From IMG/VR virus record IMGVR_UViG_3300031994_000017, positions 58,023 to 122,022 of that record: a stretch of 64,000 bases of DNA; one strand, written 5' to 3'. Below are positions 44,842-58,658 of this stretch, in pieces. A program made the position numbers and the translations under genes. Within the stretch, counting starts at the first letter, position 1. The number at the start of each line of letters is the position of its first letter. The notes beneath the pieces are model-generated. The model ran no database searches. It was not told the DNA's origin and saw only the letters and a list, made by a program, of their open reading frames with translations. The DNA comes from a virus. Taxonomy: Duplodnaviria; Heunggongvirae; Uroviricota; Caudoviricetes.

Positions 44842-45576
44842 TTAAAAATCTTTTGTTCCTTTACCAAGATTACAATCTTGGCACAATGTTTGTAGATTTT
44901 CTGGGACAGTTTTTCCACCTTTTGCAATTGGAATAATATGGTCAACATGAAGTTTAACTCCATCCGCTTGTGTACGGCCACAAATTTGACATTTATAATT
45001 GTCTCGTTTCAAAATATCATAACGCAATCCTGCGGTTAATTTTTCTCGTTCTTGCTTTCTATTATCAATTGAATTATTTAAATTTTTTGTGTTATTTTCC
45101 AAGAATTTATCTAAAAAGAAAAAATTTTTTTGTTTTATTGCTTCTAAATATTCATCAGTTCCCCAACTTATAAGGCAATAATACGCTAAAGGATGATTCA
45201 TATCTTCTTGACATAAAACTTTAGAAAAATTTTGATTGTCAACAATATTAAGAAAATCTTTTATTTGAAATTTATGATAAGGAGGAACGTTAAAATAAAC
45301 TACCCCATGTCCTTCTTTTCTTGAATTTGGAATGGTTTTTTGACTAAAATAAATGCGCCAAAAACTATTTGTATCAAAATCTAAGCGACACAATATATAA
45401 GATAATCCTTGATTAGCCAATTCAATTAACCATTTTGAAAAATATTCATTAAAAAAATTATTAGAATCCTGAATCGCTCTTTCTCTTTTTATTTGTTGTT
45501 CTAATTGATATGTTTTTTCTTGCTGTTCTATTGTGGTTTTGGTTAATTCTTGTAATTGACTAACTAAACTATTCAT
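44842..45576 (-). CDS. HNH endonuclease
   Basis: C-terminal YKCQICGRT...HVDHIIPIAKGG...NLQTLCQDCN. Confidence 0.6.
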   Translation of the reverse strand: MNSLVSQLQELTKTTIEQQEKTYQLEQQIKRERAIQDSNNFFNEYFSKWLIELANQGLSYILCRLDFDTNSFWRIYFSQKTIPNSRKEGHGVVYFNVPPYHKFQIKDFLNIVDNQNFSKVLCQEDMNHPLAYYCLISWGTDEYLEAIKQKNFFFLDKFLENNTKNLNNSIDNRKQEREKLTAGLRYDILKRDNYKCQICGRTQADGVKLHVDHIIPIAKGGKTVPENLQTLCQDCNLGKGTKDF

Positions 45577-45616
45577 TTTAATTATTCCTTTATTCTTTAT
45601 TATTATTTAAAAAAAT

Positions 45617-45652
45617 GGACCGGGATACCAGATTCGAACTGGCATCGCAGTC
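45617..45652 (-). pseudogene. tRNA 3'-half fragment (T-arm plus acceptor 3' strand, no 5' partner)
   Basis: Minus-strand GACTGCGATGCCAGTTCGAATCTGGTATCCCGGTCCA. Confidence 0.3.
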
Positions 45653-45657
45653 TTATA

Positions 45658-45746
45658 TGGTGCCGGGGAGGGGATTTGAACCCCCAATCCCTCACGGGCG
45701 TCGGATTTTAAGTCCGATGCATATACCTAAATTCTGCCACCCCGGC
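45658..45746 (-). tRNA. tRNA-Leu(TAA), class II, CCA encoded
   Basis: GCCGGGGTGGCAGAAT...CGGACTTAAAATCCG...GGGGTTCAAATCCCC...CGGCACCA. Confidence 0.7.
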
Positions 45747-45754
45747 ATTTATTA

Positions 45755-46069
45755 TTATCTAATGTTATTTAGATATTCTTCTTCAGTAATTTCTTCCCAA
45801 GTGGTATAGTCAGAAATAGAGTCATAATAATCTTCTCGGTCTTCTTCAGATTCCCAATCTTCATCCCAACCAGTTACTACATACTCATAGGATTCTGCGT
45901 ACTCATAGGCGAAATTATCTGCACAAGATTCAATATAAAAAGGATCAGAATTAATATCTTCTTCTGTGACCATGATATATTCATCCCAGTCACAACCACA
46001 GTAACCATTTCCACCGGATAAATGAAAATAACGCATAATTTTACTCCTTTTTTTATTATCTAGACTCAT
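45755..46069 (-). CDS. Acidic hypothetical protein
   Basis: 104-aa ORF. Confidence 0.35.
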   Translation of the reverse strand: MSLDNKKRSKIMRYFHLSGGNGYCGCDWDEYIMVTEEDINSDPFYIESCADNFAYEYAESYEYVVTGWDEDWESEEDREDYYDSISDYTTWEEITEEEYLNNIR

Positions 46070-46141
46070 TAAAAAACATCTTCTAAAATCCCAAATTCTA
46101 TGATTATTTTTTTAATAAATTGCTGTGTGAGTCTAATTACA

Positions 46142-46217
46142 TGGCAGGGGAAGTGAGGCTCGAACTCACAACCTACGGTTTTAGAGACCGTCGCTCTAGC
46201 CGATTGCGCTATTCCCC
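46142..46217 (-). tRNA. tRNA-Sup(CTA), an amber suppressor: anticodon stem ACGGT/ACCGT with loop CTCTAAA
   Basis: GGGGAATAGCGCAATCGGCTAGAGCGACGGTCTCTAAAACCGTAGGTTGTGAGTTCGAGCCTCACTTCCCCTGCCA. Confidence 0.65.
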
Positions 46218-46276
46218 AATATAAAAACAAGACAGTATATTAATTGCTTTATCCTCTAAGCTAACTTTCCTATTCA

Positions 46277-46345
46277 TGGCGGAAGGTATCGGAATCGAAC
46301 CGATGATACATTAAATAATGTATTTGCTGTAACTGTCTTTATCTT
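46277..46345 (-). pseudogene. tRNA-like 3' fragment with a CCA end and T-arm (ATCGGTTCGATTCCGAT) but no canonical 5' acceptor strand
   Basis: Sequence inspection. Confidence 0.25.
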
Positions 46346-46390
46346 ACATATATATTATATCATATTTTTTTTAAAAAATCAAATTAATAT
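46330..46390 (-). promoter_or_regulatory. Conserved promoter motif (copy)
   Basis: TTGATTTTTTAAAAAAAAATATGATATAATATATATGTAAGATAAAG on the minus strand. Confidence 0.5.
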
Positions 46391-46449
46391 TTTTAATTTA
46401 TAAAACCAAAAGTGAAAATATAATACCTAAATATTATAATTAATAACAT

Positions 46450-46716
46450 TTATTTAGCCAATCAGAATCTTTCCAAGTATAATTTCTAAAGGTAAGTAAA
46501 TTCATTCTTGCTAAATATCGTCCTAAAATATTTTTACCTTTATACATTATGGTTATTTTTTCCCAATATTTTTTAATATATGGATAATCTAAAGCTTTTA
46601 ATACTGGCAAAAATGTATTTATATTATAAGGATCAATAATATTTATTAACTCTTGTTTTGTATGCTCAGTATAAAATTGTTTATTTTTTTTCTAATAATA
46701 CTAATGTTTCATTAAA
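46450..46716 (-). CDS. Small hypothetical protein (2 TAG codons)
   Basis: MKH[TAG]YY[TAG]KKNKQFYTEHTKQELINII... Confidence 0.25.
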
Positions 46717-47521
46717 TAAGTCCTTCAATATATGCTCTATCTTCGGTAAGAATAGGCATTTCATCATCAATATACCAAGGATGACGTGTAATTACAATAC
46801 CATTTTCTGTCTCAGTAGATGCTAAATATCGCCGCACAAAAGAGCCTCTCTTTTCGGGAATTGAATAATCATCCCAATTAATTCCCTTTTGGAAAAGCAT
46901 TTCTTGAATATCTGCTTGAGATTTACCATTTAATTCCTTATGACTGAATTGTGCCTGGCCAGCAGCTTGGATACTATTTCTTGTAGCATCCTTTTGGCGC
47001 CAAATAAAATAATTACAAACCTCTTCTTTAGGAATATTAAATGCTCGCGCATCAAAAGTTGCTCTAAATTGTTTAGGACACCAAAGATTATATTTATCCC
47101 AATAGCGTTCATTATCACCTTCAAAAGAATGTTGTGTCATAGCATCATAAGATTTCACTGTTTCAGCAACTTGGTAATTGAAAACTGCGGTAGCACGTGC
47201 GGCCGCAAGGGTAGTAATCTTTTGAAGATTATAGTCAAACCAAGCATCAGTATCAATATTTTGATAATCAATTAAAAGAAGAGAAATTTCATCACTCTGG
47301 ACATATCCACCAACACAACCTTGAATACCTGCGCAAAGAGATTTACAAGTTTCTTGCATCATACGCATAAAGTCGGCATCAAAGGGTCTATCAAGACCGC
47401 GAGTAAAAGTGTGAAAAGCATTACCATCTACTCGGATGATTACAGGCATACGCCGAGTTAGATAAAATCTATATCGGTTTTCATAGAAGTCTTTCATTCT
47501 ATCGCCAAGAGTATCTTTCAT
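46712..47521 (-). CDS. Thg1-like protein (tRNA-His guanylyltransferase / 3'-5' polymerase family)
   Basis: PVIIRVDGNAFHTFTRGLDRPFDADF matches the Thg1/TLP N-terminal catalytic signature; strong SD (AAGGAGGG). Confidence 0.55.
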   Translation of the reverse strand: MKDTLGDRMKDFYENRYRFYLTRRMPVIIRVDGNAFHTFTRGLDRPFDADFMRMMQETCKSLCAGIQGCVGGYVQSDEISLLLIDYQNIDTDAWFDYNLQKITTLAAARATAVFNYQVAETVKSYDAMTQHSFEGDNERYWDKYNLWCPKQFRATFDARAFNIPKEEVCNYFIWRQKDATRNSIQAAGQAQFSHKELNGKSQADIQEMLFQKGINWDDYSIPEKRGSFVRRYLASTETENGIVITRHPWYIDDEMPILTEDRAYIEGLI

Positions 47522-47529
47522 AATTTCCC

Positions 47530-47585
47530 TCCTTTATTTTCTATATATATTATAATATATTTTTTTAAAAAAATCAAATTATTTG
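47530..47585 (-). promoter_or_regulatory. Conserved promoter motif (copy)
   Basis: TTGATTTTTTTAAAAAAATATATTATAATATATATAGAAAATAAAGG on the minus strand. Confidence 0.5.
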
Positions 47586-47890
47586 TCTTTAAACCATTTG
47601 CGCCATTCGGCATTCAGATATTCTTCTTTATTTTTATAACGCTGTGTATATTCTATAGTATGCGGATGAGATATATCAGTTAAATCTTTATAATAATCTT
47701 TTTCAGTTTCTTCTTTAGACCAGCGAAATCTATAATCGTGAATATCCCAAGTATTATAATATCTTTTATATTTGCGGCCATGGGGAATATTTTCCTCTTT
47801 CCGCACACGCTTATTAGCTTTACGTTTAAAGTATTTACGCCCTTTTTTATGATCGGTGCATATGGGCGTTTTCTTATAGCTTCTGGACAT
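47579..47890 (-). CDS. Highly basic small protein
   Basis: 103 aa, Lys/Arg-rich. Confidence 0.35.
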   Translation of the reverse strand: MSRSYKKTPICTDHKKGRKYFKRKANKRVRKEENIPHGRKYKRYYNTWDIHDYRFRWSKEETEKDYYKDLTDISHPHTIEYTQRYKNKEEYLNAEWRKWFKDK

Positions 47891-47949
47891 ATTGTAATTC
47901 CTCCTTAATAAAAGTAATTACATAAAAATACATCCTTTCTATTATCTAT

Positions 47950-48039
47950 TGGCGGGAGCGGTAGGATTTGAACCCACGGACGGAAAACCGCCTCTTGTTT
48001 TCAAGACAAGCGCCATAAACCAGACTCGGCCACACTCCC
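47950..48039 (-). tRNA. tRNA-Ser(TGA), class II
   Basis: GGGAGTGTGGCCGAGTCTGG...CTTGTCTTGAAAACAAG...GGGTTCAAATCC...CCGCCA. Confidence 0.7.
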
Positions 48040-48144
48040 ATATTACAAGACTCCTACTATACTTTGCCGACATATAGTTTTAATAAAAATGGAGGCTATT
48101 AATTTTGCTGTAAGAGTCTTTGTTTGTTAACAAAAATTAATTAA

Positions 48145-49387
48145 TTAAGGCCATTCACCCAACGGCTTACCCAACTTACCAACTTCAATATCAGTATTAA
48201 AATACACACCCTGAACAGCTTCACCTGTAAGAATGTCCTTAGCAATGTCCTGATACAAAGTGCTAACCACACCATGACAATCATTAAGATTATCATTAAA
48301 GAACTGTACAACACAGTTCTTAAATACAACATAAGTCATAGCAAACCAATTATATCCATCTTCTACTGGAGAAACAGCATAAGCAAAAGCGGGATTCTTT
48401 TCAAAAGCAGTTTCAAAGAGTTCCTTCTTACTTACAAAAGCTCGATTACTAGGAACACCATCTACCATAACCTTCAAGATAACATTGCCGCAATAAATTT
48501 CACTAGGCAAAATTTGCGTAAGAGCCGTTACCTTATCCGAGTTATTACAAGCAAGAATAATAAAAGGCTCTGGACCGCTCCAATTCACATTACAAGCAAT
48601 CTGAGGGTCTCCATCAAACAAAGCTTCAATTTCATGGATATAAGTAACCCAAGGAGGGGAAATCTTTAAACGAACATTATCCATTTCTGTCTCCTTTACA
48701 TATTTTCAAAAGTAGCTACCGCGCTTTCAGTTTCCGTTACTTCAAGGCAGGCATTTTTATAATATTTGCGCATTTGCTCATAAAAATCTTGTGCCTGCTT
48801 CAGCTCATTACTAGCAATATTCAACTTCTTCAAAGCTCTCTTCATGCGCTTACGAGCAATCTTATGAGCACATCTTGCGGTTGCAAGGTCTTTACCTTTT
48901 TCAAGATCAAACCGGTCATTAGGAGCGCACTTAGCAATACCACGAACAGCCTTACCAGCGTAAGTTGAAAGAGCAATTACCTTATTACCAGCGGTAATAT
49001 ACTTATAATTATACATATTTTTTCTCCTTAATTATTTTTCATTTTCTATATATATTATACTAAATTTTTTAAATAAAATCAAATTTTGTTTCTTTTTATT
49101 TTTAAAGTACAAGATTGATAAATAGGAATTATTAGAAAATTTTCTATTTCTTCATATTCATGGTCTATTATTTTCATTTCATTATAAGCGTTTTTTAAAT
49201 AAAGATAAAAATAACATCCTTCTTCTAAAGGGTAATTAATATTAACTTCTATTTTTTCTTCACTTTTATCAAAATTATAATTTATAGTTTTACTTGGTAT
49301 TAATTTATAGCAATCACCATTTTTATATAATGGTTGATATCCCGCCACAACGATTCTTAAATCATCAATTATATCTTGTTTTGTCAC
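48145..49387 (-). CDS. Three hypothetical proteins (48145..48684, 48696..49016 basic, 49079..49387)
   Basis: ORF track. Confidence 0.35.
49040..49090 (-). promoter_or_regulatory. Conserved promoter motif (copy)
   Basis: Same consensus. Confidence 0.5.
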
Positions 49388-49464
49388 AATTATATCCTTT
49401 CTTTTTGAATGTTATAATGATCGGGATCGTGACTGACCCCTAAAGTCGCTAGCTGCTATAACAA

Positions 49465-49540
49465 TGGAGCAAATAGCGGGATTCGAACCCGCCCCTAATG
49501 CTTGGCAAGCACTCGTGCTAACCACTGACACCATACCTGC
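49465..49540 (-). tRNA. tRNA-Gly(GCC)
   Basis: Loop TTGCCAA; T-arm GGGTTCGAATCCC; CCA end. Confidence 0.6.
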
Positions 49541-49579
49541 TTAGGTGTCCCGCCATTTAAACTCTAACGGGCTGAGTTA

Positions 49580-49665
49580 TGGAGCCGAAGGTGAGATTCG
49601 AACTCACGCGGGCTTGCGCCTCTGGGTTACAAATCCAGTGCAATCGACCACTATGCGACTTCGGC
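49580..49665 (-). tRNA. Class II tRNA with anticodon loop TTTGTAA. Loop position gives TGT, but the long variable arm argues against Thr, so the identity is uncertain (Tyr-like?).
   Basis: GCCGAAG...CTGGATTTGTAACCCAG...GTGAGTTCGAATCTCAC...CTTCGGCTCCA. Confidence 0.45.
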
Positions 49666-50182
49666 ATATAAAAATATTCTATCTGAATATTTGTTTTGAT
49701 TTTTACTTATATTGCGCTAACCGCAGTTGCCAATAACCCAGAGATTATAGCCACCCCAACCTCAAAATCAAAAAGAAATAATTCAGATAGAATATTCCGT
49801 TTAATAAAAATTTATAATAAATAATGCGTACTATCCGTAATGGAAGATAGCTATAAATTTTATTAAACTTACATTCTATTTAATCGTCTCGCATTATAGA
49901 CATAACATATTATATCATTCATACCATTACCTTTTTCCACTTACTTCGCTTGTATTTTATTATACTGTCTATCTAAACCGCTTGTATTGCTCCATATCAC
50001 TGACCTGCATATCTTAAAGACGTCGAGGTTGAGTGCCAGGAGTAGTTTAGTGGGAATCCGTGCTTTCTTTGACAGTTTTGCGCTACTATCAGCGCAAGTG
50101 GTGACTCGTAGAGAGTACGATTCTCTATCTGTAGCTTGAGAGGCTACTGTCCTAGGCCAATTAGACGAACGAGCCATATAGA

Positions 50183-50259
50183 TGGTAGCGCGTGAGGGAT
50201 TCGAACCCTGCGCCTCCGGCTTGAAGGGCCGGCGTCTTAGCCTACTTGACTAACGCGCC
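50183..50259 (-). tRNA. tRNA-Glu(TTC) (probable; position 33 is C)
   Basis: Stem CCGGC/GCCGG with loop CCTTCAA. Confidence 0.45.
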
Positions 50260-50559
50260 ATATAAGATAGGTACTTGCTTCGCTTTATTTTAAGTCCCAC
50301 GTAGAATGTACCTTAAAACCTTGGACTAAATAAATAACTTTTCCACGGATCGCTTTTAATTATGTCCGAAATTCTAGCGCGCTCTTAGTTACTGTTGTAT
50401 TCCCCAACCTATCTCGCCCTGTTGAGGAGCCTCGGCCTTGAGGCAAGTTATTTATTAAAACTATTTTCAGCTCGCATCAAAGAGATAGTTTTAAATGCGC
50501 CCAGGAACACCACGTGGAGGTAAATAGTCATCGTCCCCATAGAAAGAATTTATTTCTTT

Positions 50560-50620
50560 CTTTATTTTGTATATATATTATACCAAATTTTTTTTAAAAA
50601 GTCAAATAATTTTCTAAATG
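50560..50620 (-). promoter_or_regulatory. Conserved promoter motif (copy)
   Basis: TTGACTTTTTAAAAAAAATTTGGTATAATATATATACAAAATAAAG on the minus strand. Confidence 0.5.
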
Positions 50621-50704
50621 GTGCGGAATAAGGGACTCGAACCCATACGCCCAAAGGACAACAGCTTCTAAAGCTGCCATGACTACCAATTCCATCAATT
50701 CCGC
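50619..50704 (-). tRNA. tRNA-Leu(TAG), class II
   Basis: Stem GCAGC/GCTGT with loop TTTAGAA; long variable arm. Confidence 0.55.
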
Positions 50705-50730
50705 ATATTAAGCAAGACACTTATAATTTT

Positions 50731-50796
50731 AGAGGGTCGGATTTGAACCGACAATTTCCAATTTTTTAGATTGGCGACTTAACCCTTTGTCTACCC
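50731..50796 (-). pseudogene. Degenerate tRNA-like element (anticodon loop CTAAAAA, weak acceptor stem)
   Basis: Perfect T-arm GTCGGTTCAAATCCGAC, but the acceptor has 2 internal mismatches and no CCA. Confidence 0.25.
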
Positions 50797-50829
50797 AAAA
50801 AATTAAATTTGCTGTAAATGTCTTTAAAA

Positions 50830-50906
50830 TGGTGCGCAAAGTGAGACTTGAACTCACACGCTCTAGCGAGCAATAGGGTTTGAGCCTATCGCGTATACCA
50901 ATTCCG
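50830..50906 (-). tRNA. tRNA-Leu(CAA), class II
   Basis: Stem ATAGG/CCTAT with loop CTCAAAC. Confidence 0.6.
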
Positions 50907-51196
50907 CCATTTGCGCATAAAAGCATTTGAGTGGTCTGCAGCCCAACTCCATTAATGATAGCAGCATCACTACCAGTTTATTTTCCAATTTTTGTTACGC
51001 AAGTCTCGGATAACAAACAAAATTCTGACTCCGTTGATATTTGCGGCAATCACAGCCGATGTCTTACGCGGCTAAGACACAAACCGGTTTTTCTTTTCAT
51101 TTTTATGGGTGAAGGTACAACTCCAATACCAAACCAAGTAATTTTTTGATAACTAATCCTCTATTAGTTACAACGTAAAAATTACCAAAACGAAAC

Positions 51197-51259
51197 TGCG
51201 CCCAATGGGATTTGAACCCATACTTCTTCTAATCAACAAAAAGCGTACTCCCTATTATA
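51197..51259 (-). tRNA. Atypical class I tRNA-like with an anticodon loop containing TGA (GTTGATT), a G:G acceptor mismatch and no CCA
   Basis: GTGGCCATAGTATAATAGGGAGTAC...ATGGGTTCAAATCCCAT. Confidence 0.3.
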
Positions 51260-51264
51260 CTATG

Positions 51265-51339
51265 GCCACATATTTGGCGATCTTGCGGGGAATTGAACCC
51301 CGATCTACGGAGAGACAGTCCGTCATAATAGCCATTATA
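51265..51339 (-). tRNA. tRNA-Asp(GTC)
   Basis: Stem ACGGA/TCCGT with loop CTGTCTC; acceptor GGTCTTG/CAAGATC; CCA. Confidence 0.65.
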
Positions 51340-51344
51340 CCACA

Positions 51345-51433
51345 AGACCATATATGGTGAAAGATATGGGAATTGAACCCATCTGTTTTTCTCGGTGCAA
51401 GCGAGACGACTACCCCATGCAGTCCTATCCCCC
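51345..51433 (-). tRNA. tRNA-Ala(TGC) with G3:U70, A73 and CCA; unusually extended 5' region
   Basis: Stem TCTCG/CGAGA with loop CTTGCAC; acceptor GGGGGAT/ATCTTTC via G:U pairs. Confidence 0.45.
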
Positions 51434-51439
51434 ATCTTT

Positions 51440-51490
51440 CTTTACCTTACATATATATTATATCAAATTTTTTTTAAAAAATCAATTTTA
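51440..51490 (-). promoter_or_regulatory. Conserved promoter motif (copy)
   Basis: Same consensus. Confidence 0.5.
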
Positions 51491-51499
51491 AGATTGAAT

Positions 51500-52098
51500 T
51501 TACCAAGAAGCGTAATCAGTAATATCTTGCTTTGTATTACACTTATCACAAATTATATAAATTACCGAACCAACAGAAGTAGGATATACCTCGTAATAAA
51601 TTTTGCCGCCCTTGCAATCATGATGGCGCGCAATAAATTCGTCTCTTCTACTTCTTTCTTTTGGAGTTGTTACTGCCAATGGTTGAAGTTCTTCTGAAGA
51701 ATAAATAGGATCAAAATCAATAACTTGATTTGAAAAATTATTATTATTCTGTTGTTCTTCTAACTTCTTTAATCTAGTTTCAAAATCATTTAAAGTTTGT
51801 AAAATAGTATCAACCATTATAAATCCTCCAAAATTACATCAGAAAAACTTTCCCATTCATCACGAATCTCTACAAAATTACAAGACTCAAAATCAATGTA
51901 TTCTCCAGTTTCTCCAGAAATAATACAACTACCTACTACAATTCCGCCATAATAAATTGTTGGCATATCTACCAAAGTATAAATAACTTGTGCGGGACGA
52001 GGAAAAGTAAAACCATCCATAGTTTCTTTACAATTTATAAAAAACATAAAAACATCCTTTCTTAAAACACAGGAAGCCAATTGCCGCAACACGGACAC
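51500..52098 (-). CDS. Two small hypothetical proteins (51500..51817, 51817..52098)
   Basis: ORF track. Confidence 0.35.
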
Positions 52099-52214
52099 TC
52101 AATATGCGGATAAGGCATAAGAATAATATCTGGATCATCAAAACTTTCTACAGCAACTTCTGTTCCACAAATTTTACATACACAAGAAAAGACGATAGAT
52201 TTCATTTACTTTTT

Positions 52215-52270
52215 TCCTTTCTTCATTTTCTATATATATTATATCAAAAATTTTTATAAAAATCAAAAAA
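52215..52270 (-). promoter_or_regulatory. Conserved promoter motif (copy)
   Basis: Same consensus. Confidence 0.5.
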
Positions 52271-52424
52271 GCGGTTATAAAAATATAAAATTTATAACCG
52301 CTTTATATAAAATAAAAGAACTAAATAAAACTCTTAATCAGAGTGAGATTTTTCTCTATTATAATATAAAATTATTAAAACAATTTTATATCATTTGGGC
52401 CAGAATTAAAAATCATAAATCTCA

Positions 52425-52842
52425 TCTAACATTTCATCAATTTCTTCCTCTGTAGCGATACGAAGATCAAAAGAATCTCCTCCACCAATGATTAAAGCAC
52501 TTTCTTCTTTTAAGATACGAGCGCCGGGATGAATATATCCTAATCTTACATATTTTGTCGGTAAAACCTCAGTTAAATCTTTTGAAATGCCCTTAACCGC
52601 AACATGTAAATCTAAATTAGGAGTTTCTAAAACTTTACTAGGTATTACTGCGTCACATTCAAGCCCCTCTGCTAAACTAACAACTTTCTTTATATTACCG
52701 GCCTAAAAACTGGCTTTTTTATCTAAATTTGCCCATTTATTGTCAAAACTAAAATGAATTTTATGTCCTATTCGACCTGAAGTTAAAATTTCAGGTCTTA
52801 CTACTTTAATGTTGCCATTAAATACAGAAACTTCAATCATTT
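52425..52842 (-). CDS. Hypothetical protein with 2 TAG codons (coordinates approximate)
   Basis: Open frame MIEVSVFNGNIKVVRPEILTSGRIGHKIHFSFDNKWANLDKKAS[TAG]AGNIKKVV...DLRIATEEEIDEMLDEIYDF. Confidence 0.3.
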
Positions 52843-52910
52843 AAAATCAACTCCTTCTATTATTTTTCAAAAAAAAATAAAGTTGATTATTTATCTTGGC
52901 CCTAATTTTA

Positions 52911-52985
52911 TGGCAGGCCCGAGTGGATTTGAACCACTACCAACAGAGTCAAAGTCTGTTATGCTAACCATTACACAACGGGCCC
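52911..52985 (-). tRNA. tRNA-Gln(TTG)
   Basis: Stem ACAGA/TCTGT with loop CTTTGAC; acceptor GGGCCCG. Confidence 0.6.
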
Positions 52986-52998
52986 ATATCATTAAAAT

Positions 52999-53078
52999 TG
53001 GAGGTTCCGGTTGGATTCGAACCAACGTAACTACTGCTTTGCAGGCAGCGGCCTTGAACCAGACTCGGCAACGGAACC
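52999..53078 (-). tRNA. tRNA-Cys(GCA) (probable)
   Basis: Stem GCTGC/GCAGT with loop CTGCAAA. Confidence 0.45.
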
Positions 53079-53082
53079 ATAT

Positions 53083-53217
53083 TGGTGGGGAAGGACAGGA
53101 TTTGAACCTGCGAAGCTTTTTATAGCACTGAATTTACGCTCATTAATTGCTGTTATCAAGCCTGACTACGAGACTCAGTTATGATTTCAGCCCCTTTGAC
53201 CGCTCGGGAACTTCCCC
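53083..53217 (-). ncRNA. 135-nt tRNA-like RNA. Its ends pair perfectly (GGGGAAG / CTTCCCC followed by A-CCA) and it has a canonical T-arm, but it carries about 45 extra nt.
   Basis: GGGGAAGTTCCCGAGCGGTCAAAGGGG...GCAGGTTCAAATCCTGTCCTTCCCCACCA. Confidence 0.3.
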
Positions 53218-53221
53218 ATAT

Positions 53222-53297
53222 TGGTGGGCCATCCTGGAGTTGAACCAGGGACGCGCAGGGCTTCAACCTGCCGCTCTACCAACTGAGCTAAAGACCC
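53222..53297 (-). tRNA. tRNA-Phe(GAA)
   Basis: D-arm TAGCTCAGTTGGTAGAGC; loop TTGAAGC. Confidence 0.65.
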
Positions 53298-53637
53298 ATA
53301 TATATCATTGATTATCCGGCTCAATGATATAAAGCCTTTATATGTCCCAAACTATAAGTAAAGGATTACATAGTAAATCTGGCTGTTCCTCAAACTCCGT
53401 TTAACTGTTTCACAACGCCATGACTCACTCATGAGAAACCTTCGGGCGAATGCAGCACCAGATTATAGATATAATTTTTTTGTATAAAGAAAACTATAAA
53501 AAAACTTCCCAATCTTTTTAAAACGCCGCTATGGGGACGATGCCATCTTAAAAAAAGAGGACCATTAGTTTAATGTAAAAGTGCCCGTTGGACGAAAAGA
53601 TATTTGCATTGGTTAAAAGCGCTATTCATGGCGCCGT

Positions 53638-53714
53638 TGGTGCGGATACACGGACTCGAACCGCGACGTCTCATGCTTGTAAGGCATATGTTTTAACCAG
53701 TTAAACTATACCCG
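53638..53714 (-). tRNA. tRNA-Val(TAC)
   Basis: Loop CTTACAA; acceptor GCGGGTA. Confidence 0.55.
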
Positions 53715-53916
53715 CATATTAAGACAAATCATCAATTTTATCTTCAAATAAAGATTGAATAATAAAATAGGCATATTCAATCAAAGCTTTTCCGTCAATT
53801 TCAATCTCATCATCGTTTTTATGTGTAATTATAACATTACCAGAAAAATCTCCATTATGATGAAAACAATATCCATTTGAACTAGAAAAAGTATGCATAT
53901 AATATTTCTCCTTATA

Positions 53917-54294
53917 TTATCCAATAGCAAATGAACAAAGATGTTTTACACATTCAGGTTCATCAATTTCAAAATATCCATTCTTCTTTTGGTCGTATTT
54001 AAAAAATTGGCGGTTCATTGTATCATTAGAAATACCTTCATAGTATTCTTCCAAAACCGCGTAATTATAAATAGTCTCCCAAAGATCAGTACGATTTTCA
54101 TGAAGGGTATTAAGAGCGTCTTGTTTGTTAGAATAAAATCCCCAACAACGCTGATCGCCAAAATCAGTATAAAATTGTTCGCTAGGTCCAATTCTTTCCA
54201 TTACAGTAATAAACCAATAAGATTGTTTCATATATCCTCCATAAAATAAATTAAAACTAGACACTTTAAAAGAAAAATGTTGGATTTGAACCAA
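53917..54294 (-). CDS. Hypothetical protein
   Basis: 125-aa ORF. Confidence 0.35.
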   Translation of the reverse strand: MVQIQHFSFKVSSFNLFYGGYMKQSYWFITVMERIGPSEQFYTDFGDQRCWGFYSNKQDALNTLHENRTDLWETIYNYAVLEEYYEGISNDTMNRQFFKYDQKKNGYFEIDEPECVKHLCSFAIG

Positions 54295-54345
54295 CTACAT
54301 CCAGATTACAAAGTCAGGCGCTCTACCATATGAGCTAAATTCTCT
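54272..54345 (-). tRNA. tRNA with a TTTGTAA-containing anticodon loop (Thr-TGT-like; imperfect stem)
   Basis: D-arm TAGCTCATATGGTAGAGC; T-arm GTTGGTTCAAATCCAAC. Confidence 0.4.
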
Positions 54346-54366
54346 TTTTAAAGAAGTTTGCTGCAA

Positions 54367-54461
54367 GTGCCTAAAATGGTACTCCCCCTCGGATTCGAAC
54401 CGAGATCGTACGCTAATCTGGCGCCTTATGCCGGGCATAAACCGGTTGCACTACCGTTGTG
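54367..54461 (-). tRNA. Atypical 95-nt tRNA-like with candidate anticodon TAT (loop TTTATGC) and a very long variable region
   Basis: Acceptor GCTCCCC/GGGGAGT, discriminator A, CCA; T-arm CTCGGTTCGAATCCGAG. Confidence 0.35.
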
Positions 54462-54561
54462 CTAGGGGAGCATATAATAGCAGTTATAAAACAGAACCAA
54501 TGTATACATTAATTCCTAGAACTGACCTGCTACAGTTTATATATCTTAAATATATCATTAA

Positions 54562-54825
54562 TTATCCCGCATTATAAGAATATAAAATGATTTTTACTTG
54601 ATTAAAATCTGCTTTACCAATTTTAGTTACCTTTAGAGAATTAGGATCTTGTACCCAATCACTGATATAAGGATAATCAAAATTATAATATAAATTATCG
54701 TCAAATTTGCCATCATATGTTGGATTCATAACTCTGGCTTGATTTTCAGATTCTGCTACACAAACAAAACCAATATATTGATCATAACCAATTTTATCTG
54801 TTCTTTCAACCAAATAAATATTCAT
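54562..54825 (-). CDS. Hypothetical protein
   Basis: 87-aa ORF. Confidence 0.35.
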   Translation of the reverse strand: MNIYLVERTDKIGYDQYIGFVCVAESENQARVMNPTYDGKFDDNLYYNFDYPYISDWVQDPNSLKVTKIGKADFNQVKIILYSYNAG

Positions 54826-54853
54826 ATTTATTATCCTCTAATAAAAAAATATA

Positions 54854-54930
54854 TGGTCCGAGTGGAGGGACTTGAACCCCCGATCTCTTGCGCCCAAAGC
54901 AAGCGCGATACCAACCTTCGCTACACCCGG
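54854..54930 (-). tRNA. tRNA-Pro(TGG) with C1:G72
   Basis: Stem CTTGC/GCAAG with loop TTTGGGC. Confidence 0.6.
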
Positions 54931-54950
54931 ATATACATACAAGACATTTT

Positions 54951-55024
54951 TCATTGCAGAGGGACTCGAACCCCCAATAATCCATTAATCAGACGGATGA
55001 GTTAACCATTTTCTCTATACATTA
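54951..55024 (-). tRNA. tRNA-Ile(GAT)-like with a weak acceptor stem and no CCA (possibly a pseudogene)
   Basis: Stem TCCGT/ATGGA with loop CTGATTA. Confidence 0.3.
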
Positions 55025-55047
55025 AATTGCTGTAAATGTCTTTATTA

Positions 55048-55133
55048 TGGTACCAAGGGGCAGATTCGGACTGCCGTGACGGCATTATCAGTGCCGCATA
55101 CTAGACCGCTATATGACCTCGGTATATTTCTAG
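55048..55133 (-). tRNA. tRNA-Ile(GAT)
   Basis: Stem CGGCA/TGCCG with loop CTGATAA; acceptor ACCGAGG/CCTTGGT. Confidence 0.55.
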
Positions 55134-55184
55134 GCCCATCTTTTTAGAGTATTGATCTACCAGCTGATCTATTTTCAAAATTAA

Positions 55185-55254
55185 TGGCTTGAAAAGTTGG
55201 AATCGAACCAACGACATATACTTTGTTAAGTATGATTGCTGTATAGGCCTATTA
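55185..55254 (-). pseudogene. tRNA-like element with a good T-arm/acceptor 3' strand and CCA but a non-canonical 5' half
   Basis: GTTGGTTCGATTCCAACTTTTCAAGCCA; no matching 5' acceptor strand. Confidence 0.25.
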
Positions 55255-55329
55255 TGGCATCTCCCAAAGGACTCGAACCTTCATCAACGGCTTCGTAGGC
55301 CGCTACTCTCTCCATTGAGCTAAGGAGAT
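55255..55329 (-). tRNA. tRNA-Arg(ACG)
   Basis: Stem GCGGC/GCCGT with loop CTACGAA. Confidence 0.6.
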
Positions 55330-55332
55330 ATA

Positions 55333-55409
55333 TGGCACCCCGGCAGGGATTCGAACCCCGAACCCACAGATTAGAAATCTGTTGCGCTATTCAATTACGC
55401 CACCAGGGC
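55333..55409 (-). tRNA. tRNA-Arg(TCT)
   Basis: Stem ACAGA/TCTGT with loop TTTCTAA. Confidence 0.6.
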
Positions 55410-55412
55410 ATA

Positions 55413-55487
55413 TGGGGCGAAATACCGGATTTGAACCGATACAAACAGAACCACAATCTGTCGTGCTACCTTTACACCAATTACGCC
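55413..55487 (-). tRNA. tRNA-His(GTG) with an encoded G-1 and C73
   Basis: Loop TTGTGGT; 5' GGCGTAAT; 3' ATTTCGC-C-CCA. Confidence 0.55.
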
Positions 55488-55492
55488 AAATA

Positions 55493-55567
55493 TGGCAGGA
55501 CGACTAGGACTCAAACCTAGACCAACGCTTTTGGAGAGCGCTATGCTATCAATTACACCATCCCCCT
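55493..55567 (-). tRNA. tRNA-Trp(CCA)
   Basis: Stem GCGCT/AGCGT with loop CTCCAAA. Confidence 0.55.
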
Positions 55568-56169
55568 ATATTTTACTACTTGTAAGGTGAGTAAGCCTTC
55601 ATTTTAGCAAACGTAAGTAGTCACCGCTCGCAGATAGTTATTGGCCCTATCTCAGCCACCGGACGTCATTCTAACGTTGTTCCTCCGGTCAAACTCGGTA
55701 CTCTTTCTCGCAGTACGGACGGTTTCTTTTTAGGCTCCCCCAAGGCAAACAATTATTCCTTTGGCGGCCAAGGAGAATTACGATATCTCAACCCTACGCT
55801 TAACAGGCGTATGCTCTGCCTTTGAGCTACTCAGCCATAAACTATACGCTTTAATTTATAGAGGAAAGCGTTTGCAACTCCTACCTCTGTACGCCGAACA
55901 TCCTATTGGAACGCTTACACCCTGCGGGACTTCTATTGTTTATTTGCCGGCAGAATTTGAACCATTAACCGTGGCGTAAGGCTTTCCATAACGTCTCCTA
56001 TTGGAAAACTTTTTGAAATTATAGGAAAAAGTTAGAAGTACGACTTCTTTATGAGACTTTCAACTCCAGCATTGCTTTTACAGTAAAGCGACTGCCTACA
56101 ACTCGTTTCTTATCGTGTCCACGGCACGGCTCAGTTTCGTGTGACAGGTACGAGCAATTATACCTTTAA

Positions 56170-56235
56170 TGAACTTGACGGATTCGAACCGTCTAATTGC
56201 CTTACGAGGGTCAATTACAGATCCAGTGTAGTTCA
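56170..56235 (-). pseudogene. Degenerate tRNA-like element (T-arm GACGGTTCGAATCCGTC)
   Basis: 6-bp acceptor but no clear anticodon stem. Confidence 0.2.
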
Positions 56236-56449
56236 AATAATAGAATTTAGTAGTATATCTTGGCCTTCGGTATCCTACTTGCAGTTACTTGGCTCTATCA
56301 AACCAAGCCAGGTCGTTCACACTTTTGCGCAGGGGACAGCCTAGACCTCACCAGCCCCCATTCTGTTAGAAGCACTGCGCTACTTGCCAAAGTTGATTGG
56401 GATTGGCGCCCAATAGCCTGTTGATTATAGAGCTTAGCTCCCAGCTCTA

Positions 56450-56538
56450 TGGTCCCTCGTTGTGGAGTCGAACCACATGAGTCGTTAGACAACGGGTTTA
56501 CAGCCCGCACCGCTTCCACATACGGTATACCGAGGGAT
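56450..56538 (-). tRNA. tRNA-Tyr(GTA), class II, CCA
   Basis: Stem GCGGG/CCCGT with loop CTGTAAA; acceptor TCCCTCG/CGAGGGA. Confidence 0.55.
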
Positions 56539-56704
56539 ATTTTAATAAAAAGGTCCATCGCCGAAGTTTCATGCCCTTGTTTAGCGCTTTTAAGGGGTCA
56601 CCCAAGACCTAGCGATGCTTAACTGGGTACTGACCTTTTTATCTAAATGTAAGATAAAAGATTGAAGGTCATTGTAAAATGTCAAGTCCTCTTTTCTATC
56701 TTGA

Positions 56705-56765
56705 TTTCTTATCTCTTTATCTTACATATATATTATATCATATTTTTTTTAAAAAATCAATTTTC
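56705..56765 (-). promoter_or_regulatory. Conserved promoter motif (copy) driving the non-coding/tRNA block 56680 to 55570
   Basis: Same consensus. Confidence 0.5.
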
Positions 56766-56775
56766 AGATTTTTTA

Positions 56776-56852
56776 ATGGAGCGGATGACGAGACTCGGAC
56801 TCGCAACAGCCTGCTTGGAAGGCAGGAATTCTACCAATTGAACTACATCCGC
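56776..56852 (-). tRNA. tRNA-Gly(TCC)
   Basis: Stem CCTGC/GCAGG with loop CTTCCAA; acceptor GCGGATG/CATCCGC. Confidence 0.6.
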
Positions 56853-56857
56853 ATTTA

Positions 56858-56948
56858 TGGCAGAAAGGGCGGGATTCGAACCCGCGGAAGAGATTTTCCC
56901 TTCACCTGCTTAGCAGGCAGGCACCTTAAACCCCTCGGTCACCTTTCT
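56858..56948 (-). tRNA. tRNA-Ser(GCT), class II
   Basis: Stem CCTGC/GCAGG with loop CTGCTAA; long variable arm. Confidence 0.55.
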
Positions 56949-56977
56949 ATATAAAAGGGATTTTGAAATCCCCAAAA

Positions 56978-57265
56978 TTAGAACCAGTCAAAAAAAGAAA
57001 AGAAGGGACTAGTCTTTGTAAAAGTAGCATGAAAGCTACCATAATCTTTAAGAAACTCATTTAGAACTTTATTATAATTCTGACGAGCCTCTGCCATAGC
57101 CTCATATGCCTTTTCAACCTCTTTTGCGCGCGCGGCACGCTGTTCTGCGAGAGCCTTCTTTTTTTCTTCTGCCTCTGCTCTAGCCTTTTCCTGCGCTTCC
57201 TCTGCTTCTGCGCAGGCCTTTTCAGTGTCATAAAACTTATTCAGTTTTTCACTAAAATACTTCAT
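56978..57265 (-). CDS. Ala/Glu/Lys-rich coiled-coil protein
   Basis: 95-aa ORF. Confidence 0.4.
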   Translation of the reverse strand: MKYFSEKLNKFYDTEKACAEAEEAQEKARAEAEEKKKALAEQRAARAKEVEKAYEAMAEARQNYNKVLNEFLKDYGSFHATFTKTSPFFSFFDWF

Positions 57266-57724
57266 TTGAAATTCCTACCTTTCAAATTAAATTTTGCGTC
57301 CTCGCCTTCTTCCTCGGGACTTGGAACCCGCATACGGTGGTTTACGCAAAATATATAAAAACTAGAGGCAAGAAAAACACATTGTAAAAATACAACTGGG
57401 TGTAAAAGAAACCTCTAGAGTAAATTCTTTTGTTCCCATACACTTTAAAATATATGAGAAAAGATGCCACCCTTCTAGCCAAGACAGCGACTCCCTAAAT
57501 CTTGGTTCTCTGTTTAGAAGGTCTTAAACTTACAAAATTGACGCGTCTTTGTAAGAAGCTGTAAGGAAGCTCAAACCGCATTGCTCATTCACCCGTCAGA
57601 ACTATGCTCCTAGGAGGTACTAATCGGCGTTTTCTTTTATTAGTGAAGAAACCCGTTTTCTCATAACCAAAAAAGAAAAACTTGCGGCAAAAGAGCTGAT
57701 ATCCGCGATACGAATTGCCGCAAT

Positions 57725-57799
57725 TGGTGCCGGATGCGAGAATCGAACTCGCGTAGTTTTGCTTATGAGACAAAACAGGAAACCAACATCCTATCCGGT
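57725..57799 (-). tRNA. tRNA-Met/Ile2(CAT) with an A1-C72 mismatch
   Basis: Stem TTTGT/GCAAA with loop CTCATAA; T-arm GCGAGTTCGATTCTCGC. Confidence 0.5.
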
Positions 57800-57879
57800 A
57801 TATAGTGGTAGTTTTACGAGCTTGACCACACGCCTCGTCATTTAATAAAACATAAATGAAATTAAAAATAATAAATTCT

Positions 57880-57940
57880 TATCTTTATCTTACATATATA
57901 TTATATCAAAAATTTTTGAAAAAATCAAATTTAAAATCAG
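57880..57940 (-). promoter_or_regulatory. Conserved promoter motif (copy)
   Basis: Same consensus. Confidence 0.5.
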
Positions 57941-57943
57941 GAA

Positions 57944-58249
57944 TTAAAATACTTCGGGATTACGATTAAAGAAATCTAGAAGATAACCTTCATCTTCCTT
58001 GTGTTCGCAAAACAGCTCCAAATTATCGCCATCTTTAGCGAGAAGTGCGCCAATAGCTACATATTTGCTCAATTCTGATTTTAGATTATACCTATCACCA
58101 AAAGGAGAAATCAAATAAACATCTCCCTCACAACGATCTATCGCTGCTAAAAAGTCATGTAAAACTACATCATTTTTAATCTTCATTTTCTTTTTCCTCA
58201 ACTCTTTATTTTCTATATATATTATACTAAATTTTTTAAATAAAATCAA
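57944..58249 (-). CDS. Hypothetical protein
   Basis: 101-aa ORF. Confidence 0.35.
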   Translation of the reverse strand: MILFKKFSIIYIENKELRKKKMKIKNDVVLHDFLAAIDRCEGDVYLISPFGDRYNLKSELSKYVAIGALLAKDGDNLELFCEHKEDEGYLLDFFNRNPEVF

Positions 58250-58260
58250 ATCAAATTTCT
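58200..58260 (-). promoter_or_regulatory. Conserved promoter motif (copy)
   Basis: Same consensus. Confidence 0.5.
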
Positions 58261-58307
58261 TATTTAATGTAAAAAATTAAAAGGAACTTTTATCCTAAGC
58301 GGTCCAC

Positions 58308-58658
58308 TTAAAGATCAAAAAATTTTTTCAATCTTTCAATATTATCTTTTTCTTCTTGCGTAATAGCAGTTTGAGAAACAATAGTGGTTTCAACCTTATC
58401 CCAAGGATTAACCGTAGTAGCTTCTTTAGCTACTACAGTAGTCGGCATAGATTCTCCTACAGGATTCTTGGGACAAGTGAGAGCAATACTAATTTGAACT
58501 TGCTCTCCTCCATCATTTGCCCAAACGTAATACTTTTTATCAAATTCGCCAATATATGAAGCACCAAAAGCTTGCTTTAAGATATTTGCTACTTCTACTT
58601 TAGCATTTGCGCCACGAGCCATTTTTATTCTCCTTTCTCCTGGATTTCGTTTATACAA
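58308..58658 (-). CDS. Hypothetical protein
   Basis: 116-aa ORF. Confidence 0.35.
   Translation of the reverse strand: MYKRNPGERRIKMARGANAKVEVANILKQAFGASYIGEFDKKYYVWANDGGEQVQISIALTCPKNPVGESMPTTVVAKEATTVNPWDKVETTIVSQTAITQEEKDNIERLKKFFDL

Follow-up and report, generated by a model that had tools for sequence, protein, structure and literature searches.

Predicted small RNA genes between the tRNA genes of a caudoviricete phage, accompanied by Y-like RNAs and a Ro60-fold protein

The tRNA clusters of phages are usually read as a supply of tRNAs serving codon usage or acting against host defence, and the DNA between the tRNAs is ignored. The tRNA operon of T4 also yields the stable RNA species 1 and 2 (rnaC/rnaD), small non-tRNA RNAs of unexplained function that derive from tRNA precursors, and the ornate RNAs GOLLD and ROOL are often phage-borne and tRNA-adjacent. 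In the Y RNA YrlA, the tRNA-like domain shows the order T arm, closed acceptor-like stem-loop and D arm within a 5'/3' stem, and the 5' strand of the Ro-binding helix carries the sequence GNCGAAN0-1G (Chen et al. 2014, PMC4201824). A Ro60-Yrl pair is already described in the Thermus phage phiLo (PMC12135203). The locus presented here is a stretch of 64,000 nucleotides of the Caudoviricetes record IMGVR_UViG_3300031994_000017 (positions 58,023 to 122,022), called the window below. It contains a 12-kb tRNA cluster in which five intervals (55570-56450, 57270-57715, 49670-50180, 50260-50560 and 50910-51195) had been flagged by the initial annotation as likely structured RNAs.

The flagged stretches probably correspond to a string of independent small RNA genes carried by the minus strand. 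Six modules named A, B1, B3, D, E and M1 (Table 1) are shown by sequence comparison to be separately conserved units, and the predicted folds of B1, B3, D and E are supported by covariation, so that the idea of structured RNA holds for the greater part of the flagged sequence. The comparison was realized by blastn and nhmmer of the non-tRNA DNA against 126 fetched loci (numbers preceded by L), drawn from assemblies of rumen and gut, from IMG/VR and from four cultured phages. These loci were found with two anchors, a 493-aa protein encoded upstream of the tRNA cluster (2023 homologues) and the product of a 95-aa open reading frame (ORF) within the cluster (56978-57265). The conserved blocks are 87-95% identical between phages in which the anchor protein is about 40% identical, the product of the 95-aa ORF 63-72% and the Ro-like protein 65-74%. 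The edges of the blocks are sharp, identity collapsing within a few bases, and the blocks occur independently of each other, in tRNA contexts that differ across phages.

Homologous modules differ by 1-nt indels and by compensatory substitutions of paired bases, which indicates that they are RNA and not protein. That the stretches would encode small proteins, possibly through a recoded stop codon, has a probability close to nil. The window does encode a suppressor tRNA-CTA (46142-46218), and TAG may be read as sense in some phage genes; B3 contains an ORF of 18 codons (AGGAG-ATG), its only small ORF. However, this ORF is broken by a 1-nt indel between homologues, the substitutions track base pairs and not codons, and the longest stop-free runs on the transcribed strand of the five intervals reach only 50-80 codons with the genetic codes 11, 15 and 4. 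The statement that the intervals have no credible ORF is confirmed for the minus strand, even with TAG or TGA as sense.

Compensatory changes, the comparative evidence called for in the initial annotation, were found in 15 of the 33 pairs of B1 (5 sequences), 9 of the 23 pairs of the B3 core (9 sequences), 7 of the 25 pairs of D (7 sequences) and 17 of the 60 pairs of E (6 sequences). As controls for B1, D, E and the Y-like family described below, 500 shuffles were made and the 3' partners were slid. The paired cells represent 93% in B1, 95% in D and 97% in E, and fall to 31-41%, 31-38% and 42-47%, respectively, after sliding (30-47% over the four families), these percentages being inflated, and the double-change counts less so, by the prediction of the structures from the same alignments. 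None of the 500 shuffles matches the observed values.

The modules are found in various sets of phages. B1 is 92% identical to its copy in L001, where it follows tRNA-Tyr as in the window, and divergent copies occur in L090, L109 and L105. B3, whose core (55890-55978) is closed by the stem UACGCC/GGCGUA, is 87-93% identical to sequences of L001, L005, L112-L118 (with the exception of L115), L125 and L126; the matches of L115 and L119 to a 17-mer of B3 were rejected as due to chance. D is 87-94% identical to sequences of L003, L090-L095 and L102 and has diverged further in its copies of L014, L064 and L065; E is 74-78% identical to sequences of L003, L091, L090, L095 and L102. M1 is 95-96% identical to sequences of L005, L090 and L092, its stems being read from the sequence only. 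The 3' ends of D (AAGCGAAGUAAG) and E (AAAGCGAAGCAAG), each followed by a closing stem, share the motif A(A/U)AA(G/U)CGAAG(U/C)AAG with a short closing stem. The shorter string CGAAG, common to B1, G1, D and E, was also considered as a motif and was discarded, as it is too short to be significant alone. Compared with all 4227 Rfam families, the modules A, B1, B3, D and E gave no match even at E <= 10, and no described family accommodates any of the six modules, M1 included.

This pattern of conservation bears on two other explanations. The first one considers the stretches as cis-acting spacers only, either leaders and trailers for tRNA processing or promoter and terminator DNA, and it is unlikely. 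Their location between tRNAs and downstream of promoters is what this explanation expects, and short conserved leader-like pieces do exist, examples being a piece of 53 nt (55837-55889) and hairpins rich in A/T (53298-53385). The modules, however, measure 110-300 nt, are conserved like tRNAs, fold into several helices with covariation and lie beside different tRNAs in different phages, unlike a signal tied to one tRNA. B3, for instance, abuts a tRNA-Leu gene on either side in L001 and L005 and has other neighbours in the window. It is thus unlikely that A, B1, B3, D and E are mere spacers. The second explanation attributes the high identity to recently exchanged or mobile DNA (cargo of homing endonucleases, or units resembling miniature inverted-repeat transposable elements) instead of selection on RNA. 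The cluster is indeed a mosaic, with a block (53914-54831) including ORFs that is 87% identical to L001, and HNH and GIY-YIG genes are found within these clusters. Against it stand the compensatory-pair substitutions, the helices kept in divergent copies of 70-80% identity and the strand bias of the cassette motif described below (191:8). We regard mobility as a highly improbable substitute for RNA selection, and transfer and RNA function are not mutually exclusive.

The interval 55570-56450 is a block of 880 nt that is GC-rich, without ORF and includes a tRNA-Asn. Such a block could recall GOLLD and ROOL and be read as a single ornate RNA of large size enclosing a tRNA, a reading to which we give next to no weight. 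The families RF01998 and RF03087 were not matched at E <= 10 with lax filters, the modules A, B1 and B3 are separate and lie kilobases apart in L001 and L005, and the intervening sequence 56027-56235 is not conserved. Since the blocks occur independently, a single RNA of this type is ruled out. Along its whole length, module A shares 91% identity with L005 13794-13988 and with L120, its tRNA neighbours being the same there, and it fills the gap between tRNA-Asn and tRNA-Trp to the base both in the window phage and in L005. Over its 51 predicted pairs, one change is compensatory, six are wobble-compatible and none is broken; all 8 differences located in predicted stems preserve the pairing, and one 1-nt indel is present. 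A scan of metagenomes for A recovered again the L005 lineage (L120), leaving one distinct homologue, so that the support for A is weaker. The leader of tRNA-Asn is 100% identical over 52 nt to L091 4937-4988, from a phage that is otherwise only 70-90% similar. This tRNA-Asn (55762-55836) and the tRNA-Glu(CTC) at 50099-50175 are ordinary tRNAs that had been overlooked in the initial annotation; the interval 49670-50180 is composed of D, this tRNA-Glu and 273 unconserved nt (49666-49938).

The intervals had also been described as 45-50% GC against about 30% elsewhere. The guanine-plus-cytosine (GC) content of 55570-56450 is 44.6%, and this interval alone is GC-rich; the four others have 35-39% (39.0% in 57270-57715, 34.8% in 49670-50180, 39.2% in 50260-50560 and 37.1% in 50910-51195), against 34.9% in the window, so that the contrast had been overstated. 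The window has the appearance of a large phage, with nearly all genes on the minus strand. From 45.6 to 57.8 kb, the minus strand carries all of the 31 tRNA genes (52% GC) detected by ARAGORN, among them the suppressor tRNA-CTA; 29 of the 31 reach the Rfam gathering threshold. The box of T-arm type noticed in 55570-56450 is GACGGTTCGAATCCGTC at 56177-56193 on the minus strand. The window has 27 occurrences of the motif GGTTCRANNCC where 0.36 are expected, and every one is on the minus strand; four copies (46291, 53098, 55199 and 56180) lie outside the ARAGORN tRNAs.

The copy at 56180 belongs to a tRNA-like element (56169-56235), which agrees with the non-canonical tRNA that had been anticipated. 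It displays an acceptor stem of 6-7 bp, a reduced D region, an anticodon-like stem of 7 bp with the loop CUCGUAA and a perfect T arm, and lacks CCA; only the T arm and the acceptor-like stem are canonical. There was no ARAGORN call, no match to Rfam RF00005 at E <= 10 and no homologue in the 126 loci, where it is unique to the window phage. This element may be a decayed tRNA. Extending this idea to all of the stretches, as tRNA pseudogenes without function of their own, is very unlikely. Pseudo-tRNAs are common in tRNA clusters (some are annotated in Tsamsa and KVP40), and the degenerate D region of 56169-56235, with no CCA and no homologue, fits decay. Arms of the tRNA type are absent from the modules A, B1, B3, D and E, however, and these modules show strong purifying selection with compensatory changes; a conservation of 90% with sharp edges is not expected of pseudogenes.

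Y-like RNAs, which had been suggested for the listed intervals, are present in the cluster, but all of them lie outside these intervals (J, K and five further cassettes). J shows the order outer stem, ACAGCAA, V hairpin, T arm, closed 7-bp acceptor-like stem with a GCCA loop, and D arm. It obtains 28.1 bits with the Rfam model YrlA (RF02553), below the gathering score of 69, and 114 bits with our model R1. K obtains 97.8 bits with R1 and 28.5 bits over the full YrlA model, again without reaching 69; in this alignment, ACAGCAAAU stands opposite the consensus ACGGCGAAU, with ACAGCAA in place of GNCGAAN0-1G. A family of 16 sequences shares the outer stem, the invariant ACAGCAA, a variable hairpin, the T arm, an acceptor-like stem (about 7 bp, closed, often followed by GCCA) and the D arm. 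In this family, 17 of the 23 pairs show compensatory changes and 97.5% of the cells are paired. Its covariance model recovers the two full copies J and K and five further cassettes in the window, and matches about 35 of 55 related loci. Besides J and K, three of the seven cassettes enclose odd 'tRNAs' in normal order and two enclose a loop only. The suppressor tRNA-CTA is placed between K and the short cassette 46054-46141, with gaps of 0-3 nt.

The motif AG[AG]C-N4-[AG]CAGCAA occurs 7 times in the window, each time within the cluster and on the minus strand, and across the 126 loci 191 copies are on the gene strand and 8 on the opposite strand. Two cultured phages, Bacillus phage Tsamsa and Mycobacterium phage Zakai, have cassette RNAs adjoining their DUF2828 gene, and in Zakai the Y-like RNA (L122 6527-6661) overlaps the annotated tRNA-Thr. 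Some annotated phage 'tRNAs' (the tRNA-Thr of Zakai and the odd Ile, Phe and unassigned ones of the window) are probably Y-like mimics. We have considered J as a permuted, circularly processed tRNA gene and rejected this possibility, as the acceptor loop varies and often has no CCA. A 143-nt tRNA-like gene at 53079-53221, is absent from the ARAGORN and Rfam calls. Its acceptor stem of 7 bp (GGGGAAG/CUUCCCC) precedes ACCA, its D arm is class-II-like and its T arm reads CAGGUUCAAAUCCUG; the position of the variable arm holds an internal stem AGGCUU/AAGCUU with ACAGCAA. Its loop UCUCGUA resembles the loop CUCGUAA of 56169-56235.

In the interval 57270-57715, where a self-splicing element had been envisaged, the sequence 57295-57348 is instead a predicted twister-type ribozyme, of the self-cleaving and not the self-splicing type. 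It matches Rfam RF03160 with 27.2 bits, below the gathering score of 67.2 (E = 3.7e-4 locally). Nine distinct variants were aligned, the register being rebuilt with N padding after misalignment of the 3' half by MAFFT. The core, invariant or nearly so in the nine, is composed of the UAA cleavage site, of GGU(U/C)CCAAG(U/C)CC in the loop of P4 and of GAGG(A/G) close to the 3' end. Covariation extends to all 8 pairs of P1, while the pairing of P4 and of the pseudoknot T1 is complete (100%) and includes compensatory changes (UCC/GGA, CCC/GGG, CUC/GAG), giving a total of 12 compensatory pairs out of 15, reached in none of 500 shuffles. The low score is explained by P2, of only about 2 bp in the window variant. 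By eye, P2 and T2 have 4 bp and 2 bp in the variants of L092 and L094, against about 2 bp and 1-2 bp in the window, and cmscan marks mismatches at P2/T2 of the window variant. The conserved motif 57393-57490, detected in 9 loci including distant IMG/VR phages and with few compensatory changes, is located 45-130 nt upstream of the twister and is preceded by a terminator-like hairpin (57488-57466). It could be an element of the untranslated region (UTR) or a promoter.

Searches of Rfam (4227 families) at gathering and lax thresholds gave tRNAs only, plus the sub-threshold YrlA and twister; the Rfam check called for in the initial annotation thus brought nothing above threshold except tRNAs. Group I and II introns, transfer-messenger RNA (tmRNA), RNase P, signal recognition particle RNA and 6S RNA have no Rfam match in 45000-58500 at E <= 5, a group I intron was considered and discarded, and ARAGORN found no tmRNA. 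The Y-like RNAs and the twister diverge within kinds of RNA that are already known.

Table 1. Features of the window, in the order of the module groups. All lie on the minus strand.
Feature	Positions	Strand	Description
Module A	55568-55761	-	194-nt RNA filling the tRNA-Asn/tRNA-Trp gap exactly
tRNA-Asn(GTT)	55762-55836	-	ARAGORN; Rfam tRNA 48.1 bits; T arm atypical
Leader of tRNA-Asn	55837-55889	-	53 nt, hairpin AGAGG...CCUCU
Module B3	55890-56026	-	Variable 5' hairpin and conserved core of ~89 nt
138-nt stretch	56027-56164	-	GC 43.5%; no homologue in 126 loci (blastn, nhmmer); no Rfam match
tRNA-like element	56169-56235	-	Read from the sequence and the minimum free energy fold
Module B1	56236-56385	-	150-nt RNA, three main helices
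Module M1	56538-56646	-	109-nt conserved RNA directly 5' of tRNA-Tyr; outside the flagged interval
Sigma-70-like promoter	56732-56760	-	TTGATT-17-TATAAT, with TG; consensus scan only
Module D	49939-50098	-	160-nt RNA directly 3' of tRNA-Glu(CTC)
Module E	~50268-50547	-	~280-nt RNA, first after promoter 50605-50577
Y-like RNA J	55124-55257	-	YrlA topology
Y-like RNA K	46222-46345	-	Same family as J; abuts suppressor tRNA-CTA
Cassette AAAGACAUUU-ACAGCAA ... AAAUGUCUUG	54934-55048	-	Encloses normal-order tRNA-like element, called tRNA-Ile GAT, 41.9 bits
Cassette, GCAGCAA variant	54251-54379	-	Encloses tRNA-like element, 8-nt anticodon loop
Cassette	50707-50830	-	Encloses 'tRNA-Phe(AAA)'
Short cassette	48040-48126	-	Stem, ACAGCAA and A/U-rich loop; abuts tRNA-Ser
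Short cassette	46054-46141	-	Abuts suppressor tRNA
Twister-P1-like ribozyme (predicted)	57295-57348	-	30 nt upstream of the 95-aa ORF 56978-57265
Conserved motif	57393-57490	-	CAUAUAUUUUAAAGUGUAUGGG AACAAAAGA ... UCUUUUAC, two hairpins
G1	53370-53466	-	Conserved non-tRNA block outside the listed intervals, 93% to L005; outer stem AAUCUGGUGCUG/CAGCCAGAUU; contains CCCGAAGG
G2	53298-53385	-	Conserved non-tRNA block outside the listed intervals, 94% to L001
Ro60-fold protein gene	42492-44048	-	518 aa; Pfam DUF2828 and DUF7788
Thg1-like 3'-5' polymerase gene	46712-47521	-	Flanks the cluster
RNA ligase gene, PHA02142 OB domain	37053-38459	-	Flanks the cluster
HNH endonuclease gene	44842-45576	-	Flanks the cluster

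The cluster ends with the gene 42492-44048, which is separated from K by 2 kb and from J by 11 kb. The AlphaFold model of its product (predicted local distance difference test, pLDDT, 73) has Ro60/Rsr structures as its top 11 Foldseek matches in the PDB, over the full length (E down to 1.4e-5). This resemblance was obtained by fold search only, as no PDB sequence was matched by sequence or profile search, and Pfam TROVE was not matched either. Homologues in mycobacteriophages are annotated as 'Ro-like RNA binding protein'. Homologues with DUF2828/DUF7788 occur in 705 cultured phage records (120 from Escherichia, 95 from Mycobacterium, 77 from Salmonella, 56 from Vibrio, 54 from Listeria, and others), and the DUF2828 family is also found in Felix O1-like and Staphylococcus phages. 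The Ro-like gene follows the tRNA cluster in L097, L102, L105, Tsamsa, Vibrio phage KVP40 and Listeria phage LMSP-25, directly so in the last three. Among the cultured-phage loci carrying this gene (L121, L122, L123 and L124), that of Zakai (L122) shows it adjoining a band-7 gene and the 'tRNA-Thr'. The protein is the probable partner of the cassette RNAs. The neighbouring genes of Thg1-like polymerase and RNA ligase fit a phage RNA-repair context (PMC7824862).

Several other observations concern the cluster and its relatives. Band-7, PD-(D/E)XK and GIY-YIG genes are found inside the cluster in related loci. The 918-bp block 53914-54831 (minus strand) contains the small ORFs 54562-54825 and 53917-54294 as well as a tRNA-Ile(TAT) and a tRNA-like element enclosed in a cassette. 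This block is conserved far above the surrounding genes, and this excess, judged from sequence identity, suggests mosaic exchange within the cluster. The B3 core is present on L125 (JAFRFD010000090.1), a contig binned in a Methanobrevibacter metagenome-assembled genome (MAG) from goat ileum, and on L126 (CAMYZQ010000009.1), binned in an uncultured Firmicutes MAG. L125 also matches the profiles of G2, D and G1 (weakly for D and G1). Both are probably mis-binned phage contigs. A search of IMG/VR for close relatives with the anchor protein, and also with oligomers of B1 and A, gave no result.

Promoters upstream of the stretches, another point of the initial annotation, are present as TTGATT/TTGACT-17-TATAAT sites, for example at 56760-56732 and at 50605-50577. 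The latter, directly before E, matches the consensus at 11 of 12 positions. The former would drive M1, tRNA-Tyr, B1 and the following genes as far as A, tRNA-Trp and beyond. The modules would be co-transcribed with the tRNAs from such repeated sigma-70-like promoters, and stable module RNAs would probably be released when RNase P and RNase Z excise the flanking tRNAs. Cleavage by the twister would cut the transcript just 5' of the mRNA of the 95-aa ORF and free the upstream RNA, and the cassette RNAs would be bound by the Ro-like protein. Our best guess is that A, B1, B3, D and E may be trans-acting, protein-binding RNAs of the same phage system of tRNA maintenance or counter-defence.

Several points weigh against the interpretation of the stretches as a string of small RNA genes. 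The transcription, processing and stability of the modules are all inferred from sequence, and an association of the Ro-like protein with any of A, B1, B3, D and E is hypothetical. Across the flagged DNA, the Rfam gathering score is met by tRNAs alone. The folding energies of single sequences are unremarkable (z = -0.9, -0.4 and -2.1), and the counting of pairs is subject to the circularity indicated above. Only two distinct sequences of module A are known, and P2 of the twister is weak, with about 2 bp in the window variant. Finally, about 690 nt of the flagged DNA (56027-56164, 49666-49938 and 50917-51195) have no homologue in the 126 loci.

A broader proposal would see in A, B1, B3, D, E and M1 as many new classes of non-coding RNA of phages, six in all, produced from the tRNA precursor and acting with the Ro-like protein, Thg1 and the RNA ligase; we put it forward tentatively and hold it to be rather doubtful. 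If it were true, the six classes could form a ribonucleoprotein system of tRNA quality control or counter-defence. They could serve as decoys or scaffolds against host anticodon nucleases, or as tethers recruiting host exonucleases in the manner of Y RNAs, and a second site of protein binding could lie in the 3' motif with CGAAG shared by D and E. In general, the large tRNA clusters of phages would then be regulatory-RNA operons with a role beyond decoding. In the present cluster, a third or more of the 12 kb appears to encode folded RNAs other than tRNAs, several families of which have no Rfam counterpart and are conserved like tRNAs, so that the tRNA cluster would yield far more than tRNAs. 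The analysis links the ACAGCAA-stem RNA motif, the widespread Ro60-fold DUF2828 family and the tRNA clusters that precede the DUF2828 gene, and this link renders the role of Ro-like proteins and their RNAs in phages testable.

Compared with the described systems, the locus resembles GOLLD and ROOL as phage-associated, tRNA-adjacent and GC-enriched non-coding RNA, but differs from them by the absence of Rfam match and by its separate modules of 110-300 nt that occur independently. Like the T4 species 1 and 2, the modules are predicted small non-tRNA RNAs encoded among phage tRNA genes; the window contains many more families, some of them much larger (E, about 280 nt). A blastn search with 55570-56450 of 50,697 records of cultured phages, a collection which we take to include T4, matched tRNA-Asn only. 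The predicted ribozyme shares with twister P1 (RF03160) the UAA, the CCAAG loop and the GAGG(A/G) core together with covarying P1, P4 and T1, but is without P3 and P5, has a short P2, scores 27 bits against 67 and constitutes the 5' UTR of a small ORF within a phage tRNA operon. With respect to YrlA/Ro60, J and K score 28 bits against 69 and carry ACAGCAA instead of GNCGAAN0-1G, and the protein of the window belongs to DUF2828/DUF7788 and not to Pfam TROVE. The seven copies per genome are scattered through the tRNA operon, some cassettes enclosing tRNA-like modules in normal order and some nothing. J and K nevertheless show the 5'/3' stem, V hairpin, T arm, acceptor-like stem and D arm of YrlA, with a conserved 5' motif at the position of its Ro-binding motif, and they are encoded near a Ro60-fold protein and RNA-repair genes. 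In some copies, GCCA follows an acceptor stem of 7 bp, as in the RNase P-cut YrlA of M. smegmatis, and the same architecture is found beside the 'Ro-like' gene of mycobacteriophage Zakai.

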